From IMG/VR virus record IMGVR_UViG_3300008954_002609, positions 1-64,000 of that record: a stretch of 64,000 nucleotides of DNA; one strand, written 5' to 3'. Below are positions 24,291 through 49,172 of this stretch, one piece after another (the stretch's first letter is position 1; every line of letters begins with the position of its first letter). The DNA is from a virus. Both the position numbers and the translations under genes were made by a program. The notes beneath the pieces were generated by a model, which saw nothing but the letters and a program-made list of their open reading frames with translations, searched no databases and was not told where the DNA came from.

Positions 24291-25556
24291 CTAGAAATCC
24301 AACTTTATCTTGAATGTATAGTCCCTGTCCTCTGTTTTCCTTACCGGATTTGCGAGTTTCGCGATTGCTATAAGATTTCTATTTTTATCATATATGCCTA
24401 TTTTCGATATGTATGTTTGCTTACTAAAGGATCCCGTAGGATCAGAATATGGAGTATATTGCAGATTCTTTACCTTCAAACCTTTATGCTCTTTGAACGT
24501 AAAACTCGAAGTGTGAGGCAAAGATAATTGCCCTTTTTCTAGAAAAGTCGGGTTTGTTGAGTTGTTGACCTCTCCCTTACGGGCGTGAGCCAGCATAGTC
24601 ACGGTTGGAACATAGTTGATCCCCTCGAAACTAACAACAAATGTCGAACCCGTGAGTACTCCAGCAGCGGTGCCGTCGTTCGCGCCGCGTCCAAAATATT
24701 TCCACTTTGGAGTATATGTATCATTGCCAATGTATTTGTCGGTAAACGCATCGTTAATATCCCAGGCTCCAGTCAATGCCAAGAAACCTTCATTATACAG
24801 GACCACGCCGCCGACCTTTCCGTCGTCGGTGGCAGCATTGTATGTACCAGAGACCTGTATCAACTCTCCGTTCCTCTTTGTATCTCTTAGTTCCGCTGCC
24901 AAAGTTCCAGTTATATAAAACTGTAACGCTACTGATCCCTTCTTTATGGAGGATCCATAAAATATAGATGGTATCTCTATCAGCGACATCTCTTGGAGGC
25001 TCTTATCCCACTGGATACCTGGCATGTTTGTGGACGCACTGTTAAATGCATAGTGTTTGCTGATGTGCGCATACTTATCAAACGAATTCTTCAAAGAATT
25101 TATGTACTTCTTGTTTCCAGTTATCGTCTTGAACGATCCGTTGTTCTCCACCACGTCTATAATTGTTGTTGAGGTTTCGGATAATTTAATTGTCTTAATA
25201 CTTGACGTTAGTGGGTATTTTCCCTTTATCGTGTCGCCATGCGAAAACTGGGTTGCACTATCAAACTCTGTCGTACTTATCGTTTTAAACGCCGTTCTAG
25301 ACCCCTCTTTGGTTACAAAAGGATAAATTGATCCACTTCCTGGGGGCAGGTCAGACTGGTCTATCGCTCTATCGACATTTAACTCATATAGGCTCAAAAA
25401 GCCTTGTGGGGTGGCATTCGTATTATTAAAGTTTGCTTTAGAGTTCTTAACGCCGTTTATGTAAACTTTTGAATCAAAGATTACGAATTGTTGTTGGGGG
25501 AAGGTCTTTATCCTATTGTAGAACAAATCTCCCGAATTGAATGTATAATACGGCAT
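24291..25556 (-). CDS. Baseplate/tail structural protein with a C-terminal tail-collar-like segment
   Basis: Ends 'YISKIGIYDKNRNLIAIAKLANPVRK....YTFKIKLDF'. Paralogous to the next gene. Confidence 0.65.
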   Translation of the reverse strand: MPYYTFNSGDLFYNRIKTFPQQQFVIFDSKVYINGVKNSKANFNNTNATPQGFLSLYELNVDRAIDQSDLPPGSGSIYPFVTKEGSRTAFKTISTTEFDSATQFSHGDTIKGKYPLTSSIKTIKLSETSTTIIDVVENNGSFKTITGNKKYINSLKNSFDKYAHISKHYAFNSASTNMPGIQWDKSLQEMSLIEIPSIFYGSSIKKGSVALQFYITGTLAAELRDTKRNGELIQVSGTYNAATDDGKVGGVVLYNEGFLALTGAWDINDAFTDKYIGNDTYTPKWKYFGRGANDGTAAGVLTGSTFVVSFEGINYVPTVTMLAHARKGEVNNSTNPTFLEKGQLSLPHTSSFTFKEHKGLKVKNLQYTPYSDPTGSFSKQTYISKIGIYDKNRNLIAIAKLANPVRKTEDRDYTFKIKLDF

Positions 25557-25564
25557 AACACTTC

Positions 25565-26866
25565 TTAGTAATCCAATCTAACTCTTAGCGTTAGTTCGTT
25601 CGTAGGGTCCTTCCTTAGTGGTTCAGATAGCTTCGCTGCAGCCAATAATTCGTTGTCCGGAGAATACAAGCCAATTGTTGTAATGTAACTAATTGGCATG
25701 TCGCTTGGAACGTTCTTTACTCTTATCTGGCTTTCCGTTAGATATGACGGATTCGAACTATAATTAAACTCATTATGATGTGCCCTACAGAAATAAACTG
25801 TTGAGTTCAGCTCAGTAGTATTATTAAAAGAAACATTTAATATTCTGTGTCTGATCGCGCTTGCTGCTGTCTGTATTGATGACCCCGTAAACAATGAATA
25901 AACGTCTGCATGTCCCAGAGCAGTGATATCTACTCCTGCGGCGTCTACTACCTGCTTGTGCATCATGCAACTTGCAGAATTCAGAATACCGCCAGTTAGG
26001 TGGTACACCGTTGCTGGTGACGTTGAGGCAGTGACTTGTCTGACGCCTGCGTCTCCACCGCCGTCGTGATTAGCTCTGGCGAATGCGCGGGCATCCAGAA
26101 CAACTATGCCTGCCTGATAAAAGATCAGACCTATGTTGCCTGGGCTAGTTGGATGATTAGATCCTGTAGTCAGACCATGTGCAATTGGCGCAGTAATTGC
26201 GTTTGATGTCCCGCCGCTTGAAGCAGATAGAATACCATATTCTCCTGCTGGAGAATTTATTCTGTAATCGTTCTGAGCGTTTGTGTCTTTTACTACAATG
26301 GTTCTACCTGTGTACTTTCTAAGATCGCCGGTAGTTTCATCTGGTGCATCTGGAGTGCCGTAGTGAGGAGATACACCCAAGGTCATGCTGAATGATCCCT
26401 TCTTGATCTCGTCCTTTGTAAGTAATCTTGAAAAGTTCAAGAAAAAAGCCTCGTGGATTTTTCCAGTTTTTGGATTCCCTGTAACATCTCCATCCTGATC
26501 GAACGCTCTTATGTTGCCATCCTTATCGTGGCCCATCAGAACCTGAGCCATTTGATTGTATATCTGTATCTTCTTTTCTTGCTGAGTTCTTGCTACCTGC
26601 TTAATATTTCCAGATAAAACAGACCCTGTTGAATAGCCAGTTGTGATATCAAAAATGTGATTAGCCGAAGAACTGAGGTATGGGTAATCATACACTGATT
26701 GGAACATTCCATGTGAATAGTTTTTTATATTCAATTCTGTCGCAATGCTCCCATCCCTGTTGTATGTACCTGAGACGATTGCTCCGGTGATAGGGATTGC
26801 TTCGTGAAGTAATGTCTTACTTGTTACTATGTCAGTGTTGAGAAATGTCTTGAAAGTTGTTGCCAT
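25565..26866 (-). CDS. Baseplate/tail structural protein with a C-terminal tail-collar-like segment
   Basis: Ends 'YITTIGLYSPDNELLAAAKLSEPLRK....LTLRVRLDY'. Shares 'IKKGS' and 'N.S.NP' with the 421-aa paralog. Confidence 0.65.
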   Translation of the reverse strand: MATTFKTFLNTDIVTSKTLLHEAIPITGAIVSGTYNRDGSIATELNIKNYSHGMFQSVYDYPYLSSSANHIFDITTGYSTGSVLSGNIKQVARTQQEKKIQIYNQMAQVLMGHDKDGNIRAFDQDGDVTGNPKTGKIHEAFFLNFSRLLTKDEIKKGSFSMTLGVSPHYGTPDAPDETTGDLRKYTGRTIVVKDTNAQNDYRINSPAGEYGILSASSGGTSNAITAPIAHGLTTGSNHPTSPGNIGLIFYQAGIVVLDARAFARANHDGGGDAGVRQVTASTSPATVYHLTGGILNSASCMMHKQVVDAAGVDITALGHADVYSLFTGSSIQTAASAIRHRILNVSFNNTTELNSTVYFCRAHHNEFNYSSNPSYLTESQIRVKNVPSDMPISYITTIGLYSPDNELLAAAKLSEPLRKDPTNELTLRVRLDY

Positions 26867-26878
26867 TGTTCAGTCCTT

Positions 26879-27877: not shown

Positions 27878-27939
27878 ATTTTTTACTCCTAGGTATTCTA
27901 CTAACTAATTAGGGATTAATCCTCAATAAATCCTAACAT

Positions 27940-30900
27940 TTATGAATTTATCTCCGTATTATCTTCAATTCTAGTATATTTCTTTTGAAATTTAAAATTT
28001 ATATCAACCTGCTTACCTGTTGACTTCGAGGTTATTCTGCATTTAAATTGCTTTCCCCACAAAGTCTCTCCTGGGTTGTCAGGCGTGCCCACAGATCCGA
28101 CCTCCTGGTGTCGTTCCCACTCCAAGAAACTGCCCCCGCCTGGGAGCGGAAGAATTGTTTGCAACATAGCCGGCGTTATCATTATCTTTTTTCTAAAAAC
28201 CATCTTTGTCTCTTCTACTGGTTTCGGAAAATTCCAGATGGACATTTTCATATAAACCATATCATCTTCCGATATGAGTTCAACCTCATATATGTTTGTA
28301 GGATTGGAAACGTGCCCGTGGACATCTTCCGACCTAAACGTGTAATAGTATTTCTTGTTTGGCAACACATCATCCTCGAAGGCTGTACTTGTCGCATCCG
28401 ACTCTATCCTCGTTAGCTTGTTTTCGTAAAAGTCATCCCAAGCCAGAGGAGGAGTATCTATTCTAAAAATCTCAAAAACTTTTGTCATATCATCGTTCTT
28501 AAATTTTACTGGTTGCACAGTGGTCCCATCTGATCTTTTGCGGGGAACGCTTCCAGCATATACTTGTCTTTGTGAGATTCTGACCATATCAAACTGCCCA
28601 TGATCATCTGGTTCGAGTATTACGGGGTTTGCCACCATTTCTCCAGTGTTGCTATTCAGCCAAAACAAAATCTTGTTTTTCACTCCCTTGTATGGGATGA
28701 TGTTGACGTCTGGCGGAACGGGTGGCTTATCCAATATTGCGATTTCCCTTGTGTGCATCGGCACGACAGCGATTCTGACGCTGGGGGTGTGAACAACTCC
28801 GAAAAAGAATCTGCCATCAGCATGTCGTCGATCGGCGGGGTCACTTGCCTCATGAAATCTCCGTATTTGCGCGTCTGTCATACAATCCAAATAAGCGTAT
28901 CTAGTACCGATTATCATGACAATAGATGAAACTTTATAAAGATATCTCTTTCCGTACTCCACTTGACTATCAACGTACTTGACTATGTCAACATCCTCTC
29001 TGTTGCCAAACATGAAAGTCTGGATCAGTACGCCTTCTTCGCTCATTTTGTCAACCCGATACCCAACAATCTCCGAATATGCCGGATGACCGTTCAAAAC
29101 ATCGTTAAAATTTGTCCGATATTTCTCTTCCACTATATTCTTAATTTTGGACTTCATTATCGCCCTACTTAATTGTGACCTAAACACTTCTTGTGGCATT
29201 GATCTACCGGATGTTGGTCTGTTGTTTTCTAAGGTTTCTAACCATTCATTTAAATCTGTATATTGTATATCACTTTCTACAATATCCGAAAATACCTTTT
29301 TAGTTTTTGCGGATGGTTGTATTCTATCTCCTTCTGGTACGAACTCTCCGTCTAACCTTCTCCTGACGTTCCCTAAATCAAGATCAATCCCCTCAAAGGC
29401 GTCAGAAACGTCCCCCACTATGGCACTCTGAGAGGACAGTATCGCATCCTCTTCCTGGGTACTGGATCCAAGTAACTGGGTTACTACCTTCATCCTTTCG
29501 AAATCATACCTCATCTCGCGAGGTCCATTACCAATTACTCTGTCGTCGTTAGGAAAACCCAGTGGAAAAAATAAGTTAAATAAATTATCTCTATCCTCGA
29601 TCCTAATTGCTTGCACCAATTTAGATTCAGTATTGGTCGTTATTTCTATTCCCGTATACATCGGGAACATATCTTTTTCCTTAAAAACCTTCTTAAAGGT
29701 CTCGGTTCCAGGGTCGGCATAGACATCCAAATTTGATACTTCCGCCCAGCGGCGGTGGACGAAGATACCATATTGTGTCGCTGCTCGTTCTCTCAATAAC
29801 TCTCGGTGTTGTGTAGCAGAATTGCCAGGAGTAACCAAATTTAAGAGATTTTCTTGCATCAAAAGCTCTTCTCTCACTCGTGATTCTCTATTGCGCTGCA
29901 CTGACCTACCTGGCTTAAACTTATAATAATTTGGAAGCCTGACCTCTTCGTAAAACGGAGATAATATCTCTTCGTATATTCGATCATAGTGGTTGTAGAC
30001 TCCATAAATATCTGCGTATATTCCAGTGTTAAAATCTGTTTTGTCCATTTGTTCCTTTGTCAGAAAATCAGGAATCATGGTCACATGGTCATGAAATGTG
30101 TGCACATAGCTGCCACCAGGGCGGAGAGACGGATCCCTAAACTCCTCCAAGGTGGTACCATACTGGAGCCGTCCGGAAGCGCCTGCATTCCTATAAAAAG
30201 GAACCACAGGCCATATATTCTTAGATTCAACCACCTGGCTAAAGTCCGCATCATATTTAAAGAAACTCCTTGGTCCAAATCGTCGGTATTCTCCATCACT
30301 AGTCGTTTGTGATCGTTTTCTAAAGTTTTGAAGATTTTGTCCTGCATATGGGAGACCATATAAATAGTTTCTCCAATTCCATCGAGATTGTTGTGGTAGA
30401 TTCTCACCAGCTGGAACAAGTATCTTAAAGGACTCTTGGAATATTGGGAACGATATCTCCGGGCTTCGTTGAGTAAACATTCCTAAGATACGTTGCAATT
30501 CGAACCAGTCTTTAGGAGGCAATATTGCATCCAACCTATCAATCCGATCAGGTCTACCAAGAGTAACCGGAGTCGATGGAGACGGTGACCACAGGACATT
30601 CGTCTTGTTAAAGAAACTAAATTCTGGTTTGTGGATTCCGTGAAAAGAAAGATCTGTGGCTCCCTCTGTAGGCTCTGTCGGAAGAAGTCCATGGATGTGT
30701 GCCTGGTGTAGCCACATCTTTCCTGTTGCATACCTAAATGTATCTCCTCCGCTTGTGCCCATCTCCCAGCTCATCTCACGCCTAGAAGGCACATTTGGTG
30801 GGATACGACCGTGTAAGGACTGGTTCGCTGGATCTTCCCCTCCTAGTCCAGATGGTCCAGGTATCTGGTTCCATGGGAAAAATTCAACAGATGATCGATG

Positions 30901-31374
30901 GGATGATCCGAACATGTTTTCATGATCTATCAGCCATTTAAACTTTCCTGCGGCAAAATTATGTCCTGGTTCTGGTACTATTTCGTTGAAATCCGCCCCA
31001 GTAGATGCGGCGATGGCATAGGCTTCGGCGGCTTGGGCGACGACCGCACCAAGTTCGGCTTCTACTGCATTCACCAAATCAACCTGGGCTCCGACTTCGC
31101 CCATAGCGGCTATGATTGCACCCATAGCAGCGCCAGGAACAGGACCACTAGGTGTCTCGTTTCTACAAAGACCCGTCACAGCATCGATCATGGAAATAGC
31201 ACTAGTAGCTGCAGCAGCGTTTGCATTTGCCTCCGCTTGAACCCCTGAAACGAGTCCAACGAGTCCCGAACTGCCCTCCGCAGCCCTGACAGAATCTCTG
31301 ACTAAACTTCCAAAGCCTGTAGCAGCATATCCTCCTGGCGATGGTCCGTCTCGCCTTTCACCGTCCCATGGCAT
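27940..31374 (-). CDS. Large hypothetical virion-region protein with C-terminal FN3-like repeats
   Basis: 'YVDSQVEYGKRYLYKVSSI' and 'FEDDVLPNKKYYYTFRSEDVHGHVSNP' resemble FN3 strands. Ala-rich N-terminus. Confidence 0.65.
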   Translation of the reverse strand: MPWDGERRDGPSPGGYAATGFGSLVRDSVRAAEGSSGLVGLVSGVQAEANANAAAATSAISMIDAVTGLCRNETPSGPVPGAAMGAIIAAMGEVGAQVDLVNAVEAELGAVVAQAAEAYAIAASTGADFNEIVPEPGHNFAAGKFKWLIDHENMFGSSHRSSVEFFPWNQIPGPSGLGGEDPANQSLHGRIPPNVPSRREMSWEMGTSGGDTFRYATGKMWLHQAHIHGLLPTEPTEGATDLSFHGIHKPEFSFFNKTNVLWSPSPSTPVTLGRPDRIDRLDAILPPKDWFELQRILGMFTQRSPEISFPIFQESFKILVPAGENLPQQSRWNWRNYLYGLPYAGQNLQNFRKRSQTTSDGEYRRFGPRSFFKYDADFSQVVESKNIWPVVPFYRNAGASGRLQYGTTLEEFRDPSLRPGGSYVHTFHDHVTMIPDFLTKEQMDKTDFNTGIYADIYGVYNHYDRIYEEILSPFYEEVRLPNYYKFKPGRSVQRNRESRVREELLMQENLLNLVTPGNSATQHRELLRERAATQYGIFVHRRWAEVSNLDVYADPGTETFKKVFKEKDMFPMYTGIEITTNTESKLVQAIRIEDRDNLFNLFFPLGFPNDDRVIGNGPREMRYDFERMKVVTQLLGSSTQEEDAILSSQSAIVGDVSDAFEGIDLDLGNVRRRLDGEFVPEGDRIQPSAKTKKVFSDIVESDIQYTDLNEWLETLENNRPTSGRSMPQEVFRSQLSRAIMKSKIKNIVEEKYRTNFNDVLNGHPAYSEIVGYRVDKMSEEGVLIQTFMFGNREDVDIVKYVDSQVEYGKRYLYKVSSIVMIIGTRYAYLDCMTDAQIRRFHEASDPADRRHADGRFFFGVVHTPSVRIAVVPMHTREIAILDKPPVPPDVNIIPYKGVKNKILFWLNSNTGEMVANPVILEPDDHGQFDMVRISQRQVYAGSVPRKRSDGTTVQPVKFKNDDMTKVFEIFRIDTPPLAWDDFYENKLTRIESDATSTAFEDDVLPNKKYYYTFRSEDVHGHVSNPTNIYEVELISEDDMVYMKMSIWNFPKPVEETKMVFRKKIMITPAMLQTILPLPGGGSFLEWERHQEVGSVGTPDNPGETLWGKQFKCRITSKSTGKQVDINFKFQKKYTRIEDNTEINS

Positions 31375-31376
31375 AT

Positions 31377-35492: not shown

Positions 35493-36459
35493 ATAAATCC
35501 CCCGTAGGAATTGCCGTATCAGTTATTCTAAACCCTAGGTCCCTATCCCTATATGTCTTTGTCATTGGGTCATATACGTCGCTGTCAAAATCTATCTCCA
35601 CATATGTCGCCAATTCGTTCTTCTGGGGAACGTCCGATTCCTTCAACAACAATGCTAGCAACTTTTCCTCCACCACTTTCAGTCCATTTTCTATAAATTC
35701 CTCCTCGCCATCAACAAGAAAAAACTCAACTTCAAAATTATCATCAGAGACTGGAACGTTATCTTCTACTATATCCAATATAATATAACTCTTGTCCTTT
35801 GATACATTTAGCACATACCCGTCGACAAATTCTATCTCGTTCTCGTCGCCGTATTGCGTCTGATATTCTTCGATGTCTATCGTTTCTTCTGGCGGGGTGG
35901 TGGTTGCCTCCAACTCATAATCCACTATCATATTTATCTGAGGACGTCTGTATCCAATATTTGGACCCGAAGCACTGACCTCTATCGGTGTTTCGAATCT
36001 CTGACTATTTTTACTTGCAATGTTCCACGACGGAACATACCTGTTTCCAGTCTGTGAGTTTCCCAGCAGATTTCTCATTAACTTTCTATCGTCGGGAGTA
36101 ATAGATATGTCATCCACATAATCTTTTCCATAAAGATCATCACCCAGGACCTTTGCAAGCATGTCAGGATCGTCATCCCCCTCTGGTGCGTTTGTTATTT
36201 GATTGTTTAATCTTGTCACTCTTGATTCCGCACCTTCGTGTTCGTAGAGCGGTCTCATTCTTATCGTGTTGTTTTGTATTCTTTTGTGAGAAGATTTGCC
36301 CGTCTCAAAAGCATTTTCTCCGTAAGACACATCATAAAGAACCTCGTCGTCAGAGAAGGCATAATACACAGGCTCAAATTTGCCCTTTGATAAAAGGTAT
36401 TTGCCGTATTGAGTGAGTTGAACCTCCATTACTTCTTCTTTTTTATTAAAAAACGACAT
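35479..36459 (-). CDS. Baseplate/tail structural protein, N-terminus similar to 26879..27877
   Basis: 'EVQLTQYGKYLLSKGKFEPVYYAFSDDEVLYD'. Confidence 0.65.
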   Translation of the reverse strand: MSFFNKKEEVMEVQLTQYGKYLLSKGKFEPVYYAFSDDEVLYDVSYGENAFETGKSSHKRIQNNTIRMRPLYEHEGAESRVTRLNNQITNAPEGDDDPDMLAKVLGDDLYGKDYVDDISITPDDRKLMRNLLGNSQTGNRYVPSWNIASKNSQRFETPIEVSASGPNIGYRRPQINMIVDYELEATTTPPEETIDIEEYQTQYGDENEIEFVDGYVLNVSKDKSYIILDIVEDNVPVSDDNFEVEFFLVDGEEEFIENGLKVVEEKLLALLLKESDVPQKNELATYVEIDFDSDVYDPMTKTYRDRDLGFRITDTAIPTGDLCDDD

Positions 36460-39400: not shown

Positions 39401-42400
39401 GTGGCTCAAATACCAGAGCTGTTTCATTCAAAGTTCCTGCAGACCTTGTCAATTCGTGTTGGTAAGATTTACCATTTAGATAAAACGCAGGAGCGGAACC
39501 ATCAAACTTTTTCGTAACCGCCATATGGTGCCACAAGTTACTACTGCTAAGGATCCTTTTCTTTGTTTGCCACTCTTTATAACTGCTGCTTCCGTGCCAC
39601 ATCCCGAAAACCAGCCTGCCTCCTCGCTTCAAAAACTGGATACCTTCTGTGCAATTGTTATCATCGCCAATATGTATCAAGCTTCCAGAGTTTTCCGGGT
39701 TGTTCGTAGCATCGTCTGGATCTTCTTTGAAGTTGGCCCACATAGAAAAGCTTATTCCTGAAGTTGCTGCAGTGGAAGCTTTTCTGATACTTCCTGTCAC
39801 CATCTTCATCCAATCTTGTGCCTGACCTATATCACACCTATTTGTAGATCCAGATCCATTGAAAAGGGTGACAAACTCCAAATATGGTCTATCTTTCTTG
39901 GGAACGAAGACTGGATAGTCGACCGCGATACCAGACTTTATAGAATTATATGTTATCCCTGGGGAGTAAAAGGGAGCCAGAGCTGTTCTCCAGTGAGCAT
40001 AGTTACTACCAGTGGTAGTATAGTCTTCCGGAGTTATCGAGGTTCCTGGTCCATATGTACTCTTGAAAGTCTCCGCTAACTGAAGGGTTCTCTGGGCTGG
40101 ATAGAATCCCTTGTATGGCAGAAGCTTCTTTAGTGCCTTGCACTTGAGTGTCAAGTTAGCAGGGTGCATTTCTAATGATCGGTGCCCACTCTTCACTATT
40201 TCAAAATGCTTTATAAAATCACTATGACCATATACCTTAAAGAAATCTCCTTGGCTGCTATTGTTATAATTGTCTGAGGCTCCTGTCAAAGACAAGAAAT
40301 CCGATTGGAAACAATCAAAGAACGGGTCTTGCGATGGGCTGTCCATATAATCCGACATATGATCGCTGATCCTATACTCTGGTATTACAGAATACTCTTT
40401 CCCAATTATTCTCATGTCCTGGGCGTAATCATCATAATTTTCGTAATTAAATGGATATCTTCCTGCTTGATCTCCCGCTTCCCACTTGGCTGCTCCAGCT
40501 AAATATGTATTGGTTGAAGCACTCACCTTAAGGAAGTTTGCCAACAGAGACACATGCCTTATCCCTGTACGCACAGTCTCGACCCTGGCACCGTCCATGC
40601 TGGTGTTGAGAGTATAGTCGGTGCCCGAAAATCCGCCTCGGTACCCTGATGTTGGCCAACGGGACTTTTCATGAACCCCCCTAAATTCTAGAGTCACCTT
40701 GGCTCCACTAGAACTAGCCTTTATCCTAGGCTTTATACCACTGTGTGTATTTATTGTTTCCTTTATTGCATCGGCAATACCTGCTTTGGTGTAACTAGAC
40801 TGCGACAGGCAAACTGCTATAGTGGGTCTACCCGTGCCCCAAATCTGTGTCTCTCTTGTTACCTTCAATGCTTCCGTCTTAACGAAGACCAGAGAAAACT
40901 CGTGTTCCGTACCTGGACCGTTAAAGACAATTTCCATGTAGCTGTTTTCTACGCCACCTGTTGAATACGTGTTCCAGCTGTCGCCGTAAGTGGATTTATT
41001 CCAATAATTTTCTCTGTTAGCCTCTTCCACAGTTAAGCAATAGGTCCATGGAGTTTCTGGGAATTTTCTAGCATACAAGGCTGAAGCACTTGGGTTGCCC
41101 CACCAAGTATTACTCCCAGACCTGAATAAACTATAAGAAGACATCAATTCGCCCTCTCCAAAGGTTCCCGGAACATCAGTGCCTAGGCTTATCTCTTTCG
41201 AAGTCCCAAAATTCTCTTGTGCATCGAGGGGCCACATGCTGCTTGTGATTCCGATGTGTTCGCCCTGTGAGTTTGGCTCTGAGACGCCTCTATCCGACCT
41301 CTTTGTCTTCCACCAATCTATAACAAAATTTTCTCTCTTTCTTGACTTGTTTGAATAAGAGTTAACATCTCTTGGGTATATCGTGACAGGATACACTGAT
41401 TGCACTATATTTTTCGGCATCTTGGTGCTTAGTGCCTCTGACATATCGAATATTTGATCAATTTGTAAGAACCTTACCAATTCAGGGTTCGAGAATGTCA
41501 CCAAATCATTCAAGTATGTGATCTTTCCTCCCGAAGCAATAGATCTACCTCCTGGTGTTCTAAGTAGGGCTGCTCTCATGGTGGTGAGTGCTACGGGAAC
41601 GTTAGACGATTCATCGATAGAAGCAATTGCAGTGGTTGTAAGCGGCTTGGAGTAGGTGACCACTGATTCGGTAAATCTGTACCTTTGTGAAGAGATTGTT
41701 CTGCTTGTTCTTGTTTTCGTGTGTTCGATATTTTCCGGCCAAGAATAATCTCCATCCGTAAAATAGGATGGAGAGAAGGACATCATTTCGGGATCATCTC
41801 TCCTAACTGCAAGTGAAAATATATTTTCTTTTCTTAATTTTCTTGCAACAGGGTGGTCGCCTGCCCTTAATTGCTTCCATGTCGGGTACCCATGTATAGA
41901 TCCTCTGTTTAGTAACATGTGATTGAGGGTGTGTGCCCTCAATCGAGCCTCGATTGAACTAGTGAGTAGACCACCACGGGAATCAATTGGTGCCAAGCCA
42001 CCTAGCGTGTTGTTGCTTTGTGAGACATGCTCGTATATAATAGAATTCAGTCCGAGAAAGTCAGTTGGTATACCAGGGTCCGGGCGGTTAGTTAGTGCAT
42101 GATCAACCCCGTAAGAGAGGAGCCTATTTGCATCGCTTGTTCTCAGACCCCTATCGCTCGCGGAAAGAAAAGTGGGGGACTCAAAGTCGACCGCATTTGC
42201 TTCATTCGTCTCAAATATTTTTTCGTTGGTCTGGGACTTTGGATAGGTAAAGTTCGATTCAAGTCTGTTATAACTACATGTTGTCTCTAAGGTCGAATTT
42301 CTAATCCATGCGTACCCGAGATCACTCTGTGGTATTTGATGTTGTACAAAATTGTTGTCATACTTTGGTCTGCATTCATGCCCAGACTCATCACTCGATG

Positions 42401-45400
42401 TTGCAACGTATCTGGGGTTTCCTTGCACCTTATGATAGGATGCTGTAGTTGTTGATGAAGTTATCGAACTGTTATGCGTGGCACCAAATTGTCCCATCCT
42501 GTCAGTAGACCACTCATTTAGCGCCAGTCTTGCCATAAGGTTTCTATAATTTAGGGTATTATAAACCGAATATTGATTTGTTGCGACATCGAGACCAGGA
42601 CCACCTAAACTATCGCCCGCTGTCTCGACTCCGCCAGGGGCAGAGAATCTGTTAACAAAGACATTCTTTCTTTTCGGTCTTTCATACTTCCTTCTTTCGT
42701 TAATCTCTACGAAGTATGGAGAATTAGTTGTTGTGCCAATAGGCTCATTCGACGCAGTGCGTATCAAGAACACTGGACTCATCTCCACTGATGTTCCCTG
42801 AACTATTTCATATTCGTGCTTGTAGTTGCCGATATTTAATACTGTGTCCTTTGCGTACTCACTTGCTGTAGTCTTTATATTTCTTATATTGACTGGCCTC
42901 TTTGCCAATGGCTCCCTAAGCACTCTGGACCTATTATGGGTACTAGAGGTCAAAGACACATGAAAAGTTCCCGGTGGCTCGTGATTCAATGCATACAAAT
43001 TCGGGGAAGTAACGTACAACTGACCTTGAGACATTGTTAATGCAAACGCCTCGAATCGTCGACCCTTGTGGTCCAGGCTCATTGTTGTGTTTTGCAAGGC
43101 TGGGTCGGCTTGTGGTATCTTTGGTCTCATCATGTTCAGGTGCTGATGTCTGTGAGAGTGTCCACCCACCCAATGTTCCGTAAATGGAGACTGAATAGGG
43201 ATCTCCCTGTCGTCACCATAAGCATCTGAGTGGAGATTTGTTATGTCTATGCCCTTCTTAAAGTTATCATAAATTTCAGCCTTGTAGTCAGTTGGCACAT
43301 CTGTTGAGCTACTATACATACTAAAAGGGGCTATTGTATTAAGGTCAAAGTCAGCATTTGTGTTTGATATGTCTGCTTTGCCTCCAAGCCTCTTCTTTTC
43401 AAAAACCTCTGATCCAATGCCGTTTCCATATCTTGGATGATAAACGTCTGTGCATTCTTTTCCAAAATCAACATCGGACCCACTTATTCTAATAAAATCT
43501 TTCGCGCCAGGATTACTTGTCCCAAGAAAGAAATCCTTTTTCTTGTTTAGGTGAAAGTTGTCTCCAGCGTGCACAACAGGCTGAATTTCTGCCTTTAGTC
43601 TATATGGCTTTGTTAAGCTACGAAGAGTATAACTGGTACCTGAAACCTCAGTGTAAATTGTCCTTCTTAGCGTTTCTCTCTCGGCGTCTGTTGCAGATAT
43701 ACCAGATGATAAAGAAGTTTCTTTTCTCCCTGCTCTCTCTGACCACCACAAACAATTCTCAGTCTGCAAGGCACTGCCAGAAGGCTTGTATATGCCGGTA
43801 TGCTTGAGTAGTGGAGCGTGACCAAACTTCCAGTTATACACTAGTTCATTTATTGATTTAATTTGACCAGGTTCTGGCTCTGCTTGCTTCCCCTCCAAAG
43901 TAGGGAACTTAGCCCAGTACTTGTTTCTTTCGAGAACATGACTCTCTATCATATTCCTTATATCTTCGGAAAAATCTGCAGATGCTGGCTTCAACTGGTC
44001 TAGCATTGAAGACAGTGCCGAGTCTATCCACTTATAAAACTCAACGTACTTCTCTATGTCTGGAGTATTCTCTATTCTGTCAAAAAAGAGTTGCCTTAGC
44101 TTCTCCATTGACTTATAGTTTGGTCTGTATCTATTTACGGGCTCTCCGATTAAATTACTAAAGTCCTTTATTGTTGCAAACATATCTAACATCTCTTGAG
44201 ATATTGCCTGATACATGCTCTTTTCTATTGAAAAGTTATAATTTATCGGTTTAGAGTCTCTGGTAAATGTCTGTTCATCTCTAGACAGGACCCTAACCAT
44301 ATTCGAGCTTTGCACGTTTTCTGGTATGTTTTGTCGGGACATCTCCAGGAAAGCAACCGTCACACTGGAAGTGGAGTTTGATTGAAAGAAATCTCCGCGA
44401 CCAGGGTGGTTTGTTGCCACCACGTCACCTGCCCAGCCATAATCCCTCTTGTTTTTGAAAGAGCCAGATGTTATGTCGTCTATTATAAATTGACCACCTG
44501 TCGAAGAGCCTGTAACCGTAGTAAAATCCCAATTCAACGCAAGAGTGTCGATTGATGGGACGGGATTGTCCAATCCTGGCATAAAAGTGTACGCATTCCT
44601 CATTGGGTGAGGCACACCGTAAGCCTTTGGATCTATCGAGTGAGCTTTAATAGTCTCGTTATCTAGATAAGATAACCAATGACGCAAAGAAGAAACATGA
44701 ACGTCCGACAAAGTCTTTGTGGAGCCTGCAAAGTCTGTTCTGTGGGCTCCGGCGTACAATCTTTTAGAATATTGGTGGAACCTTTGACCTTGGGCGTTAG
44801 TTAAGGAGGATGTTAGATAAAATTTATCCTTTACCTCTCCTGCGTCTGTTCTAATTCCGTAGTACTCTATTTGATAAGAATTCGTAGATCCAGAAATCGT
44901 GTTACCAAACGTTCCCTTCGGTGCAACTCTAACTGCGAAATTCCACTTTGTTCCGTCATACACGTCATAGAATACCGGGGATTCCATTGCGGATACTATC
45001 CCAGAGGTAGACCTTATGACAAATTTTGCATTTCTAGAGTGTCGTTCGTCCTTTACAGCATAGGTCTCGAAATTCGCAAAGTCTTTTGCGCTGGCTGGCC
45101 AAGCCAAATCAGTCCCTGCTCCTTTGACAGTGTGTGCACCAAACAAGGAGCTTGATACGTTGGTGGAGATGAACCCAGGCTCGCCAGGGCGGTGTACCTT
45201 CGGAAAAACAACCTCTGCTTCCGTCGTGAAAGATAAGCCAACAGAGGAATCATTTCCGTGAGCACCAGTAATATATCCAGAAACAGGAAATTCTGAAGAT
45301 TTGTTGCCCCTCCCAAGACTGGAACTATACTGATATATGGTTGCAGAATGATTATGAGGGTGATAGAAATTTATACACCTTGTCTTAAGGCTTGATACAC

Positions 45401-47231
45401 GATAATTTTGCTCTACAGGATAATCTACTCCGTCGGCATACATGTTTATCTTTACAATCTCTTCATCTATTCCGTAACACCTTAACAGATTTCTGAATGC
45501 CTTCTCCGTGCCTTTGGATTTATAAATGTGGACAAGATTGTTATAAATGTTTTGATATATTACATTTTTTACATCTTCTAATCTCTGTTCATAATTTCTC
45601 TTTTCATCTCGTGAGGCGAATGCGGATAGCACATCTGCTTCTATGAAGATCTCCGGCGTTTCAAAACCAGCAGATCTTAGCATGGTATCCATGAAAGGGA
45701 GTGGCTTGTTACCATAATCTTGGTTTCTAAGGTGCTTTAAACTTGCTAAGTGCTGTATTTGCAGGAACAATTCATCAAAGTACGAGCCCATTATTTGGGT
45801 AAGCTTTCTTAATTCTCCATTGTCATCCTCTTCCAGAATCCACCCAGGTACAGAGTGATATATTGCAGCGTTGTTTGAGACGTCATACGTTTTTCCCAAT
45901 TCCCTCACATCATCCAAGTACTTGTTGAGCTTGGGGTTCTCCACATGTATTATTGGTTCCGCGAACTCCGTTGCCGAAGCCGAAGATTGGATTATTGCTG
46001 ACTTGATACTTCTTGCTCCGGAGGCATAGCCAACCCAGTTTCCGTTAGATACTCGACCCGAATAATCCAGAACAACCTTGTCTATACTGCTTGTTAGGGT
46101 TATCCCCTCATTAAACTTATAATAGATGCCCAAATCAACATTTGGATCTTCAACGTTCGACCCACCATCAACCTGAGCGAACCAATTGCGCCCAATGTCC
46201 TTGGATGACCTTTTCGTCTTCCAAAACCTAAACTCGTCCAATGAGCCAGATAGCTTACCAAATCCCAAACCAGGATTCAAAGAAGAATCCGAATCGTTCA
46301 AATCTGTCCCACTTGCGTCTTTTGCTGCAACAAGTGATCCGATGTTTGCCACCAGCGTGGTGTTCAAGCCACCTACGGATGAACCAGTGAGGAGCTGATG
46401 ATTCAGGTCTCCGTCCACATACATTCTGTAGTTGACCTGGCTTCCAGTATTCTGGAAGGCAAATGCGTAGTGGTGCCATTCTCCGTCTGATGCACTAGCG
46501 TAAAGACCAGCTGCACCTGAGACTATTAGATTCTTGAAGCCTGTTGATCCTGACCTGTAAGTGACTACCCACGGAGAGTTCTCCGTGGAAAGAGAACTGT
46601 CAAGCTCTATTGTTAGACGACCATATTTATGATCACCAGGTGTAGAACCCGATGTCCAAGCATCAAAGAGAACTTCTCTCTTTGTCAGAGACTGGTATGC
46701 GTCCTTCTTTAACCAAAATTCTACCGTGTTGCCGCGGCCGCCGTTAATGGTTAAATTCGATGTTCTATTGCTTGCCGTGCTCCACACGTTGTCAATATTA
46801 GGTCCGCCCTTTATGTAGACATATTCTTTTGTAGCGGGATTTCCATAGCTTCCTGATGTTGATACTCTAGATCCCCAGCCTGAAGGTGAAAACTTTATAT
46901 AACCGTGAGTTCTCGGGTATTCGTTCTCAAGTAAATAAAGATCAAGACCAGGAGAGTCGTTCACCCATTTTATTTTTTCAAACGAAGAGCCATCATACGG
47001 ATATTGTTCGTAAATTCTCTTTACGGCTGATTCATAGTATTCTTCCGCTAAACCAAACTTCGCAAAGTTGGAAGCGGTGGAATAGTTCACATGAGGTTTG
47101 AATTTTATCTTTCTCTTTACATACTCATCAATGTATTGACCGGATTCGATATCCTCAGTCAGATTATTGATCGTCGTTCCTGGCAGCATTTGCAAGGATT
47201 TTGTTTTGCTAAAAAGATTTTTTAAACTCAT
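36459..47231 (-). CDS. Giant (3590 aa) baseplate/adhesin protein with LamG (ConA-like) domains
   Basis: LamG-like 'TVEFWLK...WHHYAF...MYVDG...GSLDEFRFW' and 'SFSMW...WHHMAVT...FYLNG...EVTIWN'. Wedge-type 'NNLVHIYKSKGTEKAFRNLLRCYG'. Confidence 0.75.
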   Translation of the reverse strand: MSLKNLFSKTKSLQMLPGTTINNLTEDIESGQYIDEYVKRKIKFKPHVNYSTASNFAKFGLAEEYYESAVKRIYEQYPYDGSSFEKIKWVNDSPGLDLYLLENEYPRTHGYIKFSPSGWGSRVSTSGSYGNPATKEYVYIKGGPNIDNVWSTASNRTSNLTINGGRGNTVEFWLKKDAYQSLTKREVLFDAWTSGSTPGDHKYGRLTIELDSSLSTENSPWVVTYRSGSTGFKNLIVSGAAGLYASASDGEWHHYAFAFQNTGSQVNYRMYVDGDLNHQLLTGSSVGGLNTTLVANIGSLVAAKDASGTDLNDSDSSLNPGLGFGKLSGSLDEFRFWKTKRSSKDIGRNWFAQVDGGSNVEDPNVDLGIYYKFNEGITLTSSIDKVVLDYSGRVSNGNWVGYASGARSIKSAIIQSSASATEFAEPIIHVENPKLNKYLDDVRELGKTYDVSNNAAIYHSVPGWILEEDDNGELRKLTQIMGSYFDELFLQIQHLASLKHLRNQDYGNKPLPFMDTMLRSAGFETPEIFIEADVLSAFASRDEKRNYEQRLEDVKNVIYQNIYNNLVHIYKSKGTEKAFRNLLRCYGIDEEIVKINMYADGVDYPVEQNYRVSSLKTRCINFYHPHNHSATIYQYSSSLGRGNKSSEFPVSGYITGAHGNDSSVGLSFTTEAEVVFPKVHRPGEPGFISTNVSSSLFGAHTVKGAGTDLAWPASAKDFANFETYAVKDERHSRNAKFVIRSTSGIVSAMESPVFYDVYDGTKWNFAVRVAPKGTFGNTISGSTNSYQIEYYGIRTDAGEVKDKFYLTSSLTNAQGQRFHQYSKRLYAGAHRTDFAGSTKTLSDVHVSSLRHWLSYLDNETIKAHSIDPKAYGVPHPMRNAYTFMPGLDNPVPSIDTLALNWDFTTVTGSSTGGQFIIDDITSGSFKNKRDYGWAGDVVATNHPGRGDFFQSNSTSSVTVAFLEMSRQNIPENVQSSNMVRVLSRDEQTFTRDSKPINYNFSIEKSMYQAISQEMLDMFATIKDFSNLIGEPVNRYRPNYKSMEKLRQLFFDRIENTPDIEKYVEFYKWIDSALSSMLDQLKPASADFSEDIRNMIESHVLERNKYWAKFPTLEGKQAEPEPGQIKSINELVYNWKFGHAPLLKHTGIYKPSGSALQTENCLWWSERAGRKETSLSSGISATDAERETLRRTIYTEVSGTSYTLRSLTKPYRLKAEIQPVVHAGDNFHLNKKKDFFLGTSNPGAKDFIRISGSDVDFGKECTDVYHPRYGNGIGSEVFEKKRLGGKADISNTNADFDLNTIAPFSMYSSSTDVPTDYKAEIYDNFKKGIDITNLHSDAYGDDREIPIQSPFTEHWVGGHSHRHQHLNMMRPKIPQADPALQNTTMSLDHKGRRFEAFALTMSQGQLYVTSPNLYALNHEPPGTFHVSLTSSTHNRSRVLREPLAKRPVNIRNIKTTASEYAKDTVLNIGNYKHEYEIVQGTSVEMSPVFLIRTASNEPIGTTTNSPYFVEINERRKYERPKRKNVFVNRFSAPGGVETAGDSLGGPGLDVATNQYSVYNTLNYRNLMARLALNEWSTDRMGQFGATHNSSITSSTTTASYHKVQGNPRYVATSSDESGHECRPKYDNNFVQHQIPQSDLGYAWIRNSTLETTCSYNRLESNFTYPKSQTNEKIFETNEANAVDFESPTFLSASDRGLRTSDANRLLSYGVDHALTNRPDPGIPTDFLGLNSIIYEHVSQSNNTLGGLAPIDSRGGLLTSSIEARLRAHTLNHMLLNRGSIHGYPTWKQLRAGDHPVARKLRKENIFSLAVRRDDPEMMSFSPSYFTDGDYSWPENIEHTKTRTSRTISSQRYRFTESVVTYSKPLTTTAIASIDESSNVPVALTTMRAALLRTPGGRSIASGGKITYLNDLVTFSNPELVRFLQIDQIFDMSEALSTKMPKNIVQSVYPVTIYPRDVNSYSNKSRKRENFVIDWWKTKRSDRGVSEPNSQGEHIGITSSMWPLDAQENFGTSKEISLGTDVPGTFGEGELMSSYSLFRSGSNTWWGNPSASALYARKFPETPWTYCLTVEEANRENYWNKSTYGDSWNTYSTGGVENSYMEIVFNGPGTEHEFSLVFVKTEALKVTRETQIWGTGRPTIAVCLSQSSYTKAGIADAIKETINTHSGIKPRIKASSSGAKVTLEFRGVHEKSRWPTSGYRGGFSGTDYTLNTSMDGARVETVRTGIRHVSLLANFLKVSASTNTYLAGAAKWEAGDQAGRYPFNYENYDDYAQDMRIIGKEYSVIPEYRISDHMSDYMDSPSQDPFFDCFQSDFLSLTGASDNYNNSSQGDFFKVYGHSDFIKHFEIVKSGHRSLEMHPANLTLKCKALKKLLPYKGFYPAQRTLQLAETFKSTYGPGTSITPEDYTTTGSNYAHWRTALAPFYSPGITYNSIKSGIAVDYPVFVPKKDRPYLEFVTLFNGSGSTNRCDIGQAQDWMKMVTGSIRKASTAATSGISFSMWANFKEDPDDATNNPENSGSLIHIGDDNNCTEGIQFLKRGGRLVFGMWHGSSSYKEWQTKKRILSSSNLWHHMAVTKKFDGSAPAFYLNGKSYQHELTRSAGTLNETALVFEPPVTGDHNCSIGNTRAATGSNPEDIMRGSMEMAVAEVTIWNKQMSTASILGLHGGESYGSYATDAPQLGTPFRPDVCVGKNEAKNLVGWYRMGNDYGYMTAGDSGSAYMTNQQNMRNHALDLYADAGKFGLSGSGGRVETLSYAQFTGFSDVWQEIDSKVFKDDGSGGITRFGDAWLTGAVHMLTGAYKYPTYITGSPYNETMDGGIPRIGSASYSMGVLSGSNYGVYGPTSYMSYWSTGSSSPYGGIQRVERIPFEAVIDPRRLQSNTVTRVGANVNTALVDERVVFYETEPHPSASLQPCSFMRNIGGGNRTANAGIHNTNDINAMDPHSRGLFAYGEDTYAQTFVRGTPTTSSAMTSSFSLTEMRALGQTNYTKASNNFFAETMNFFLKGGHSTILKSADVLKQAVDPNKTYKMTLRLYRPPTEDFPIYNRPEAFGPPVDANSSGSWKEVGRDKTEYPGHGFSPFTPPHYDSYAEVEYTFTPEVGVKYESVEDVLETITTQNKLGTNTIKYNRFVKGTGSAGSTDYIFSGLTNSDFAIGKPGSRNSIQPIIESLNKSHAMQISSSFNGIDISEASLLPTKENTREDADILRKSWIIQSKWETPNMDFRRASAVQPKPYGLTKTLGMWHQTGSYKTPISFMEIRPTKRNSTSAPLDELLGMHFVSQGKELGNEVKRVSIGQMPEERKISEAVVAVPFIEGANGKRQFFVLPKSEVYKAVQAAGFSKYKKSEIEAVEMGSTTTSQNASGRSGHSEPIVPRKSIQDMVDKMLRYVIPPKMNFLKYNDPEENFISPFAMYIFEFEHTLSKNDIALMWQNLPPDVALNNFHKDSGDSLQAEAVVSHELTQNGGLLSDEKLNEGVKWLVFKAKKKAETNYFKKMKRDRLPNGHPDGEVSVENDIFDYGYNWPYDYFSLVELVKVEAEVGFARQEDISQPLTREEIASVVARTAGISINKEEEDSPRQFDTANHFSMIIKGVPKK

Positions 47232-49172
47232 TTACTTTTCTACTCTAAACTTAAAAACCTTATCTTGCACAACGTGTCTACCCTCCAGATCATAAGCAAA
47301 CTGAATACCATATGAGTAGCCAGATTCGAACAGAGACATGTTAAGGTCAAAGTAATTCCCCTTCTTATCATACGATAACTTCGTATATTTTGTCTGCTGA
47401 CCGGCAGAACCCGTCCCAAATGGTACCACGTCTAGCCGATCAATTATCCTATAAATTCGATAATATCCTTCTTTTACTATTGAAGGAGAAGTCTCGGCTG
47501 TCGCAACATTGTAAATATTTGGTTGCCAATTCCTCTCTCTAATAAAAACCCTGAATCTAACTTTGTCACTTTGTGAGTATGATTCTTTAAAATTGCTTAT
47601 ACTAGTGACATAACCTTGGATACCTGGGTTATAATCATACGCATTGTGTTTCTTTACCTTAAATACTGAACCAGTCACCAACTGTATCCCTTGAGATACT
47701 CCTGTCGGCTTACTCCAGACGTCGAATATTTCGCTTTCAGATCCTGTAAATGCAAAAGAAGCAGAATAAATGCCAGTACTGACCCAGCCTCCGGTTACAA
47801 CTGTGGCACCATCGACGGTTACGCCACCTCCTATTGGCAACGTTTTCGCCTTTATAGCTGTATTTTTTACGTTACCTGATGGAAATAACTGTAGGTTTAT
47901 TTGTGTATACGCGCTGTTGCTGCCAGAATTTCCGCCTAAGACTGGAATGTTCTTTAATTTTCCATTTACGATATTGTATAAATATAGAGTATTTAAATTG
48001 TCTTCACCTGTTAGAAGCGAGCTACTAAGATGAAAGTCTCCCCTGTCGTCACCTATTGAGTCATCCCAGCGGGCTTCAATGAGCGGTCTCTTATAGAAAT
48101 ACTCAGACCCTCTTGCGAAAAATTTCTTAGTATAATAGGACCTGTTGTATCCTCCATTCTCATACGACCCAGACATCTTAAGCATGATACCATAGTTCTC
48201 TCTATCGGGGTCCACCGTTGATTCAGCTTCTATCCATTCTTCCACCAAGGCGGTTACATTTAATTCTAAGTCTTCTGTACCTTTTTCAAAATACTTGGAA
48301 TAGTTTGGCAAATTACGGCCGGCAGTGTATCCAACTTCATGATAATCACCGCCCTCGGTGGACCATCGGATTTTACCACCGTGCTGAACCGTAGTAACAG
48401 TCAGGTGGCTAGTAGATATGTTTCCCTGGAATGATCCAGAAACTCCTGCTGATCCCGTTGTTGTGATCCTAACTGTTGCCCCTGCTGAATCATCCGTATC
48501 GTCATAAGACACAGATGCAGATAGTCCCGTTTCGTATGTTCTGATGGATCCGCTCAATATATTAGCCATCTGTTTGACTGTGCTTATACTGCCAGTGAAC
48601 GGAACCGTAATCTCTACTCCAGGCAAAGCTGCTGTGATTGCGTCGGAATCTGTTTGAAAAACAAAATTAAACCTTTTGTTATCCGCGTTATAAATAGTAA
48701 AATATTCGTTCTTGAGGTTTCCTTTTGTGGTTGTTATAAACTTTACGTCTGTTATGTTCTGCTGTAGCGTGTTTGAAGCCATAATCCAACTAGCTTCGTC
48801 ATTGTCCGTGTACTCTTCCATATCAAGACCCTGTCCCTCGTCCCAGGACCTAGAAACAGGAAGAACATGCAAATTGAATTTCTTAGGTAGGCTGTCACCG
48901 TGAGGACAATTAAACATTCTTAAGAAAAACCTTACAGACCCAGACTCAGGTATATCTCCGTTTGTTCGATCCGTGGTGATAGTATCTACAGGAAACTTAA
49001 CCAACGCTCTTGCTTTTTCTAGAGACGAAGTTGTCGATTGTCCATATATGGAAAAGACTTCTAAAATATCTGACTCACCCATATTTGACCCAGTAGCCCT
49101 CGTGGATAAGTCGTTCTTAAATGCGTTTGTAATGGTTGTGTCTGCGTTTGCAGTATATCTCTTTATAGCCAT
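47232..49172 (-). CDS. Virion structural protein (baseplate region)
   Basis: Lies between gp6 and the giant protein. Beta-rich. 'ADTTI...VSRSWDEGQG...NVTALVEEW...NYGIMLK' resembles DNRLRE-type domains. Confidence 0.6.
   Translation of the reverse strand: MAIKRYTANADTTITNAFKNDLSTRATGSNMGESDILEVFSIYGQSTTSSLEKARALVKFPVDTITTDRTNGDIPESGSVRFFLRMFNCPHGDSLPKKFNLHVLPVSRSWDEGQGLDMEEYTDNDEASWIMASNTLQQNITDVKFITTTKGNLKNEYFTIYNADNKRFNFVFQTDSDAITAALPGVEITVPFTGSISTVKQMANILSGSIRTYETGLSASVSYDDTDDSAGATVRITTTGSAGVSGSFQGNISTSHLTVTTVQHGGKIRWSTEGGDYHEVGYTAGRNLPNYSKYFEKGTEDLELNVTALVEEWIEAESTVDPDRENYGIMLKMSGSYENGGYNRSYYTKKFFARGSEYFYKRPLIEARWDDSIGDDRGDFHLSSSLLTGEDNLNTLYLYNIVNGKLKNIPVLGGNSGSNSAYTQINLQLFPSGNVKNTAIKAKTLPIGGGVTVDGATVVTGGWVSTGIYSASFAFTGSESEIFDVWSKPTGVSQGIQLVTGSVFKVKKHNAYDYNPGIQGYVTSISNFKESYSQSDKVRFRVFIRERNWQPNIYNVATAETSPSIVKEGYYRIYRIIDRLDVVPFGTGSAGQQTKYTKLSYDKKGNYFDLNMSLFESGYSYGIQFAYDLEGRHVVQDKVFKFRVEK

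Follow-up and report, generated by a model that had tools for sequence, protein, structure and literature searches.

The first 64 kb of a 104,467-bp viral contig (IMG/VR record IMGVR_UViG_3300008954_002609, positions 1 to 64,000; hereafter the window) raise the question of why one tripeptide, [S/T]-G-S, recurs throughout certain tail proteins and hardly occurs in others. The source phage is an uncultured marine myovirus, very distantly T4-like, with a major capsid protein 36-45 % identical to the counterparts in the comparison phages, which are Flavobacterium phage immuto, Microcystis phage Mel-JY01 (PP395634.1), Rhodothermus phage RM378 and the uncultured 484-kb LR756508. In the outer tail and fiber proteins that carry it, the tripeptide (termed the tag below) reaches five to ten times its expected frequency. 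An O-glycosylation sequon is probably the best single explanation, with a lineage-specific structural motif as the main rival, and the chance that [S/T]-G-S is a phage-encoded O-glycosylation sequon of the outer tail proteins appears, as judged from sequence, to be about even.

Distribution, statistics and conservation of the tripeptide

The range of interest is the distal baseplate and fiber module, with the gene order gp25-like (131 amino acids, aa), gp6-like wedge (596 aa), 646-aa, 3590-aa, 326-aa, 1371-aa, 1144-aa, 332-aa, 433-aa and 421-aa (Table 1). All long genes of the window lie on the minus strand. The spread of the tag over the contig is nearly bimodal, with ~70 sites in seven proteins and ~5 in the other ~90 open reading frames (ORFs). 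The main carrier is the giant 3590-aa protein with 25 sites (5.1 expected), and the 646-aa protein has 11 (1.1 expected). The 421-aa and 433-aa virion proteins are paralogs with similar C-terminal ends. The 433-aa family is among the very few gene families specific to the deep clade to which the phage belongs, with five copies in Mel-JY01 and two each in immuto, LR756508 and the IMG/VR relative G007, and its phi-V-S-G-S-L and G-S-G-S sites are conserved in LR756508, RM378, immuto and Mel-JY01. The densest carrier lies beyond the window, a 570-aa fiber lacking homologs among isolated phages, with an N terminus formed by a run of I/F-S-G-S-x-x-T-F/Y-x-x units spaced 10, 15 and 20 residues apart.

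The sequence-only reading of the window had described a broader class, [S/T]-[G/A/S]-[S/T], as pervasive in the 3590-, 646-, 433- and 421-aa proteins, the gp13-like neck protein and the fiber, and composition-preserving shuffles bear this out for the 3590-aa protein (66 observed against 27 expected, z 7.6), the 646-aa protein (15/5.4, z 4.3), the 421-aa protein (z 3.8; counts in Table 1), the fiber fragment at 2-1555 (14/6.2, z 3.3), the neck protein (7/3.2, z 2.2) and the 433-aa protein (8/4.0, z 2.1). Shuffling inside 10-residue blocks makes the excess barely smaller (3590-aa, z 6.0). The enrichment thus did not disappear on shuffling, the outcome that would have refuted the idea. The true core is narrower, [S/T]-G-S, in which position 3 is Ser to the exclusion of Thr. 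Among the 8000 tripeptides in the motif-rich proteins, TGS (24 observed/3.8 expected) and SGS (24/4.6) rank first and second; SAS and TSS rank below them at lower levels, and TGT, TAT and TST show no enrichment. Compared with a first-order Markov expectation, TGS and SGS in the rich proteins are 2.2-2.4 times in excess, with SGT at 0.97 and TGT at 0.57. Significance is retained under dipeptide-preserving shuffles for the 3590-aa (z 6.7), 646-aa (z 5.0), 570-aa (z 4.2) and 518-aa (z 2.9) proteins; the 421-aa and 433-aa proteins alone, with 3 sites each, do not reach it (z about 1). The neck protein has no [S/T]-G-S (0.5 expected) and bears only the weak [S/T]-[A/S]-S variant, which leaves it a doubtful member of the tagged class. 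The proteins in which the broad class had been called scarce are better described as not enriched, the 1371-aa protein being mildly depleted (1/6.0, z -2.0), the 1144-aa protein standing at 3/3.5 and the 3157-aa protein lying slightly above expectation (17/9.7).

The possibility that Ser-, Thr- and Gly-rich loops yield such tripeptides by chance draws on the fact that the tagged proteins are richer in these residues than the others and on a baseline observed/expected ratio in unrelated phage proteomes of about 1.2-1.5, not 1.0. This reading retains next to no probability and is already refuted by the block and dipeptide-preserving shuffles, the excess persisting through these as through the global ones. 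Other orders of these residues (GSS, SSG, GTS, STG and others) show neither enrichment nor conservation, whereas the tagged sites are conserved in position. A cause at the DNA level is rejected as well, there being no favored 9-mer and, as had been seen by eye, varied codons (41 distinct 9-mers over 48 sites).

Conservation is best seen in the 646-aa family, which has more than 4200 metagenomic and marine homologs, many from Tara Oceans, with [S/T]-G-S about 8-fold enriched in all of the best 120. At ~50 % identity, 7-8 sites of the family keep the exact tripeptide in 70-100 % of sequences, the other sites being lineage-specific, and 8 conserved columns hold [S/T]-G-S compared with 1 for all seven composition-matched permutations. 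Site 587 is 100 % conserved with S and T alternating at position 1, and is one of several conserved sites located in low-confidence loops of the predicted structure. This pattern indicates that whole tripeptides are under purifying selection. Gly is kept at the 7-8 conserved sites and is not kept at 13 of the 15 variable columns, where relatives without the motif have P, Q, V, T, E, N or A, which points to de novo gain of sites.

The division between tagged and untagged proteins extends over the lineage. Counts in 83 IMG/VR relatives are 0-2 sites for the upstream giant and for the gp6-like protein, 2-12 for the 646-aa homolog (median 7, the tag being retained in all 83) and up to 32 for the downstream giant, with orthologs of the 3590-aa protein in 80 relatives holding 8-32. 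Orthologs of the untagged 3157-aa giant measure 2100-2600 aa and have 0-2 sites; this protein has a strongly hydrophobic transmembrane-like segment and weak peptidoglycan-binding and FliD-like matches, and probably serves as a tape-measure or ejection protein of great length. Major capsid proteins carry 0-3 sites, near expectation, in all genomes compared. The proposal that the motif decorates exposed virion surfaces in general was too broad: it fits the baseplate-distal giants, the fibers and the 433-aa family, as well as the variable sheath region of some relatives, and does not fit the capsid, portal, terminase and gp6-like proteins, which are untagged in every genome compared.

Table 1. 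Location of the tagged and untagged proteins, the glycosyltransferases and neighboring genes (observed/expected counts refer to [S/T]-G-S unless another motif is given; positions are those of the window or, where marked, of the contig)
Feature	Position	Strand	Remarks
518-aa fiber fragment	2..1555	minus	ORF runs past the window/contig start; 6/1.1
432-aa gp13-like neck protein (head-tail adaptor Ad2)	4030..5328	minus	[S/T]-[A/S]-S 5/1.4
T4-type portal (PF07230), 657 aa, and large terminase, 528 aa	13140-16705		Both without [S/T]-G-S in 10/10 genomes compared
SbcD-like metallophosphoesterase fused to SbcC/SMC-type ATPase, 1033 aa	18811-21912		Single chain; Metallophos plus SMC_N/AAA_23
421-aa protein	24291..25556	minus	3/0.6; broad class 10/3.4
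433-aa virion protein, clade-specific family	25565..26866	minus	3/0.6
1144-aa and 1371-aa proteins, between tagged genes	27940..35492	minus	0/0.7 and 0/0.8
3590-aa giant baseplate-distal or fiber protein	36459..47231	minus	Laminin_G_3 (PF13385, ConA-like lectin) domains
646-aa string of FN3/Ig-like β-sandwiches	47232..49172	minus	Directly downstream of the gp6-like wedge gene
596-aa gp6-like baseplate wedge protein	49172..50962	minus	Untagged control; 1/0.4, and no site in any relative checked
3157-aa untagged giant	51381..60854	minus	Upstream of the gp25-like gene; 0/1.6
Glycosyltransferase GT#2, N-terminal 410 aa of a 703-aa protein	contig 88505-90616	minus
Glycosyltransferase GT#1, 421 aa	contig 90592-91857		PF00534, 50.6 bits (cut-off 26.4)
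570-aa fiber, beyond the window	contig 98632-100344	minus	19/2.9; densest tag of the contig

A glycosyltransferase pair and its co-variation with the tripeptide

That no modifying enzyme is visible, as the sequence-only reading had stated, holds inside the window; the same contig carries at ~66-92 kb an island of ~28 kb of soluble sugar-nucleotide and glycosyltransferase (GT) genes, identified by Pfam scans. The sugar-synthesis genes comprise a UDP-glucose dehydrogenase, two epimerase/dehydratases, NeuB, a CMP-sugar synthetase, a PIG-L deacetylase and a PfkB kinase, and the decoration genes two formyltransferases, two or three sulfotransferases, two methyltransferases, a carbamoyltransferase and a GDSL esterase. 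The ~8 GTs consist of one GT9 heptosyltransferase-like enzyme, three GT2 and about four GT4 members. The scans of the island gave no flippase, polymerase or lipid-carrier enzyme (Wzx, Wzy, WecA), no oligosaccharyltransferase family and no Maf (PF01973), DUF1975 or BAHT signature, and the island has no polytopic membrane ORF.

Two of the GTs, termed GT#1 and GT#2, are placed at the far end of the island beside a PD-(D/E)XK nuclease, and the immuto annotation shows the same order of nuclease, GT, GT and variable island. The match of GT#2 to PF00534 is below the cut-off (23.1 bits), and a 5-sequence profile of it matches the GT4-like chlorovirus protein B736L at E 4e-9; B736L is the nearest solved relative of both enzymes (E 1e-6 to 4e-9), and neither matches a curated family. 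GT#1 matches capsid, portal and terminase in its degree of conservation; at the BLASTP level no other enzyme belongs to the small set of clade-specific genes, and GT#1 accompanies the 433-aa family in every case. The candidate late-promoter octamer was not found upstream of the GT genes. In the 703-aa protein GT#2 (about 410 aa) is fused to a C-terminal domain of 293 aa with no Pfam or NCBIfam match, which is a separate downstream gene in G007 and in a second relative, G008. In Mel-JY01 (83441-84932) GT#1 is split into two ORFs, the phage being tag-rich nonetheless, and in the IMG/VR relative G011 (94280-95500) it contains an in-frame TAG; sequencing error, a pseudogene or recoding could account for either.

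Two acceptors other than protein have been considered for these enzymes. DNA is disfavored for immuto, where nucleoside analysis reports canonical dA, dC and dT, formyl-preQ1 replacing dG and no glycosylated base (bioRxiv 10.1101/2023.04.13.536721). Host envelope glycans fit poorly, since the GT is conserved like the core morphogenetic genes and the island has no export machinery.

Comparison of whole proteomes shows that the tag is rich where the GT pair is present, a co-occurrence that holds over 6 genomes with the pair and 7 without it. Both GTs are found in this contig ([S/T]-G-S observed/expected 2.88), immuto (2.51), Mel-JY01 (2.53), RM378 (2.67) and the IMG/VR relatives G007 (2.37) and G017 (2.93), the last two each 100 % complete, and SGS and TGS stand at or close to the head of the tripeptide ranking in this group. 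Neither GT is found in T4 (0.72 for its structural half), in HTVC008M (1.52), S-SKS1 (1.21) and P-RSM6 (1.52), or in the unrelated phages S-CBS4, TJE1 and S-EIVl (1.24-1.59), where the GT4 matches are weak and only generically similar, which makes these three uninformative as an independent replicate. Only [S/T]-G-S separates the two groups; [S/T]-A-S, [S/T]-S-S, [S/T]-G-T and [S/T]-G-N do not. A generic property of T4-type tail folds is ruled out by the T4 control, in which the baseplate, sheath and fiber proteins together hold 7 sites against 10.3 expected. The sheath is a fold common to all these phages; in genomes with the pair it has 15 sites (3.6 expected), at non-homologous positions of its variable part, compared with 5 (3.8 expected) in those without it, and most tagged immuto proteins have no detectable homolog in this phage. 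The presence of the tag on non-homologous proteins across a deep clade argues for a trans-acting cause.

Four more long IMG/VR relatives are tag-rich. Two of the further tag-rich relatives are without the GTs and also without the flanking nuclease, and are only 55-71 % complete. Phages infecting Flavobacterium, Microcystis and Rhodothermus share the tag with those of unknown marine hosts, and because it spans such differing hosts and co-varies with the phage GT pair, a host-encoded modifying enzyme, which the earlier reading had allowed for, is unlikely.

The informative exception is LR756508, a member of the clade with syntenic baseplate genes and with GT#1 beside the nuclease. Its proteome is tag-poor (observed/expected 1.37) and its homologs of the tagged proteins are bare, with the exception of the 433-aa family member. 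GT#2, which adjoins GT#1 in every tag-rich genome of the comparison, was not found in LR756508 by BLAST, hidden Markov model or genome search. GT#1 alone is therefore rejected as the correlate of the tag, and the pair, or GT#2, fits better. Trees of the large terminase (TerL), the major capsid protein and the concatenated sequences resolve LR756508 within the clade, where immuto plus Mel-JY01 form its sister group; the tag-rich genomes are monophyletic in 0 of 200 bootstrap trees, and the approximately unbiased (AU) test rejects their monophyly (p-AU 0.003). The nested position of a genome without GT#2 and without the tag implies joint loss, and the simplest history is that the GT pair and the tag were gained at the base of the clade and that GT#2 and the tag were lost together on the LR756508 branch.

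Structural context and reading of the tripeptide

The AlphaFold2 model of the 646-aa protein (mean predicted local distance difference test score, pLDDT, 74.8), searched with Foldseek, shows the string of FN3/Ig-like β-sandwiches, with 10 of the 11 tagged sites in coil and 6 starting 0-2 residues from the end of a strand. Three sites fall in loops modeled at pLDDT below 50, a predicted helix contains one, and only one is found in a short hairpin. In a set of 266 sites drawn from five genomes the flanking positions are only weakly informative (Kullback-Leibler divergence at most 0.3 bits). Hydrophobic residues are favored at -1 (55 % compared with a background of 33 %) and at +1 (47 %), Lys does not occur at +1, and there is a deficit of Asp, Glu and Pro. 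A hidden shared module around the sites is rejected, the flanks showing weak hydrophobicity only.

These features bear on a structural explanation, in which phi-[S/T]-G-S-phi would be a strand-capping or turn motif of the outer-tail β-sandwich and fiber modules, spread by descent and module shuffling, with the GTs acting elsewhere. We consider this unlikely, at something under one chance in three, and several observations that favor it also weigh against a sequon. In the predicted model the strand-end position fits a structural cap or turn too, as do the hydrophobic flanks with their deficit of charged residues and Pro. In the 570-aa fiber SGS is integral to the 10-residue structural repeat, and lost sites of the 646-aa family often become x-G-N, by which the turn is kept and the hydroxyl is gone. 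Some giant fibers of HTVC008M and S-SKS1, which have no GT pair, show an approximately 3-fold SGS excess. The untagged remainder of the proteomes shows no consistent depletion of the motif (0.70-1.90 with the pair compared with 0.72-1.42 without it), avoidance not being obligatory for the class of sequon-directed glycosylation. Further points that count against a sequon are that the co-variation comprises only two independent evolutionary events, that LR756508 is a phage of very large genome with very divergent tail genes, and that GT#1 and GT#2 resemble only generic GT4 enzymes, of which the acceptor could be non-protein.

Other observations are difficult to accommodate in a purely structural account. 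The homologous tail machinery of T4 shows none of the excess, and Thr or Asn at position 3, which would be equally compatible with a turn, is not enriched. Variable sites appear at positions that in relatives are occupied by P, Q, V, E or A instead of Gly, and one site is predicted within a helix. No common flank signature marks a shuffled module, the tagged proteins are mutually non-homologous, and the tag is gone together with GT#2 in a nested lineage. The same comparison applies to Gly β-turns (type II' hairpin, X-G-[S/T/N]-X), which the tag resembles in its central Gly, the small polar residue that follows, the hydrophobic strand flanks and the coil location just after strands, and from which it differs in the strict Ser at position 3, the T4 equivalents without the motif, the gains at non-Gly positions and the joint loss with GT#2.

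Evidence that the cause acts in trans does not by itself identify the enzyme, and the tripeptide might be read by another factor, such as a kinase, an acyl- or sulfotransferase acting on Ser, a tail-assembly chaperone or a host-surface ligand, the co-variation with the GTs being incidental. The contig also encodes sulfotransferases, a carbamoyltransferase, a GDSL acyl-esterase, ClpP and a trypsin-like protease. None of these genes is conserved across the clade, the island content being variable, and GT#1 stands as its sole clade-specific enzyme, so that we give this alternative only a slim chance.

Under the O-glycosylation reading, phi-[S/T]-G-S-phi at the end of a β-strand would be the acceptor signal on the outer tail proteins, and the phage enzymes would act in the host cytoplasm during assembly. 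The adjacent GT#1 and GT#2, of GT4 type (in GT#2 putatively) and kept by the whole lineage, would start the chain on the Ser/Thr hydroxyl, and the hypervariable island, with its nonulosonate and heptose genes and its sulfo-, formyl-, carbamoyl- and methyltransferases, would build a phage-specific glycan. We infer from the co-variation that the pair acts on proteins and reads [S/T]-G-S, and the choice of acceptor residue within the tripeptide is likewise putative. The idea of a modification sequon, first raised from the window alone, thus gains comparative support from the conservation of the sites and their co-variation with the GT pair, with its motif, the source of the enzyme and the range of surfaces corrected.

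Neighboring genes, known systems and significance

The contig has no sheath gene and is about half as large as complete relatives, from which it follows that the genome is incomplete. Searches with the tagged proteins of PHROGs and of isolated phages gave no useful matches. The two halves of the 1033-aa SbcD-like and SbcC/SMC-type fusion of the window are separate genes in LR756508, where the ORF of the portal homolog (145763-149923) runs to 1386 aa, over double the normal length. Beyond the window, at contig 93-98 kb, are a PIN-PhoH fusion, a ClpP-like protease, a PP-loop ATPase and a trypsin-like peptidase, the last being the sole sizeable plus-strand gene.

Cytoplasmic protein glycosylation in bacteria is carried out by GtfA/GtfB on serine-rich repeat adhesins, by BAHT enzymes (TibC/AAH) on autotransporter β-helices, by Maf on flagellins and by HMW1C/NGT at N-X-S/T. 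These are soluble GT-B/GT4-type enzymes that transfer from nucleotide sugars directly onto Ser/Thr (or Asn) of fibrous or β-rich proteins bound for the cell surface, with no lipid carrier, and to our knowledge no [S/T]-G-S sequon belongs to any of them. The features of the sequon-directed class found in this lineage are an enriched and conserved motif, a defined set of substrates, soluble machinery and co-variation of motif and enzyme, and the nonulosonate genes of the phage resemble flagellin glycosylation islands. Chloroviruses glycosylate their own capsid with their own enzymes, the glycans being N-linked at atypical sites and not at [S/T]-G-S. B736L (PBCV NY-2A, PDB code 3OY2) is virus-encoded, like GT#1 and GT#2, and GT4-like; the similarity is weak and confined to the nucleotide-sugar-binding half.

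Among phages, virion glycosylation is described for the mycobacteriophages Che8, Corndog and Myrna (Freeman et al. 2023, Cell Host Microbe, cited in PMC12619734), with the glycans reportedly at the C termini of capsid and tail-tube subunits. As presented there, phage GTs are proposed to coat the phage's own virion proteins in the cytoplasm, which is alike to the system suggested here from genes alone. The present case differs from that account in having a dispersed tripeptide on baseplate-distal giants, fibers and some sheaths with the capsid untagged, and in belonging to a T4-like, marine lineage with a 20-28 kb hypervariable sugar island. The literature searched held nothing on an [S/T]-G-S sequon or on glycosylated tail fibers. 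New here are the joint loss in LR756508, the correlation with the pair and not with a single GT, the controls on T4 and on motif specificity, and the finding that untagged proteins do not avoid the motif.

If the tag is a sequon, it would be the first of the O-glycosylation type to be defined in a bacterial virus and would be predictable from sequence alone, so that the sugar-coated proteins of uncultured phages, and the sites within them, could be read from their genes. The wider proposal is that a deep aquatic T4-like lineage, which numbers thousands of metagenomic members besides those cultured on Flavobacterium, Microcystis and Rhodothermus, runs sequon-directed O-glycosylation in which a conserved priming GT pair and a hypervariable island of 0-28 kb would define a tail-glycan "serotype", analogous to the O-antigen diversity of bacteria; on the genomic evidence we place this slightly short of an even chance. 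A sequon would account for the investment of abundant ocean phages in sugar chemistry, which takes up as much as a quarter of their genome, and would place hypervariable glycans on phage tails and not on host surfaces only, with a bearing on adsorption, evasion of recognition by hosts and grazers, particle stability and the engineering of phage surfaces. Three cultured relatives, immuto, RM378 and Mel-JY01, have both the tag and the GT pair, which makes the proposal directly testable. Should the tripeptide be structural, it would still be a strongly conserved signature of the lineage that divides outer from internal tail proteins across thousands of unannotated marine phage genes.

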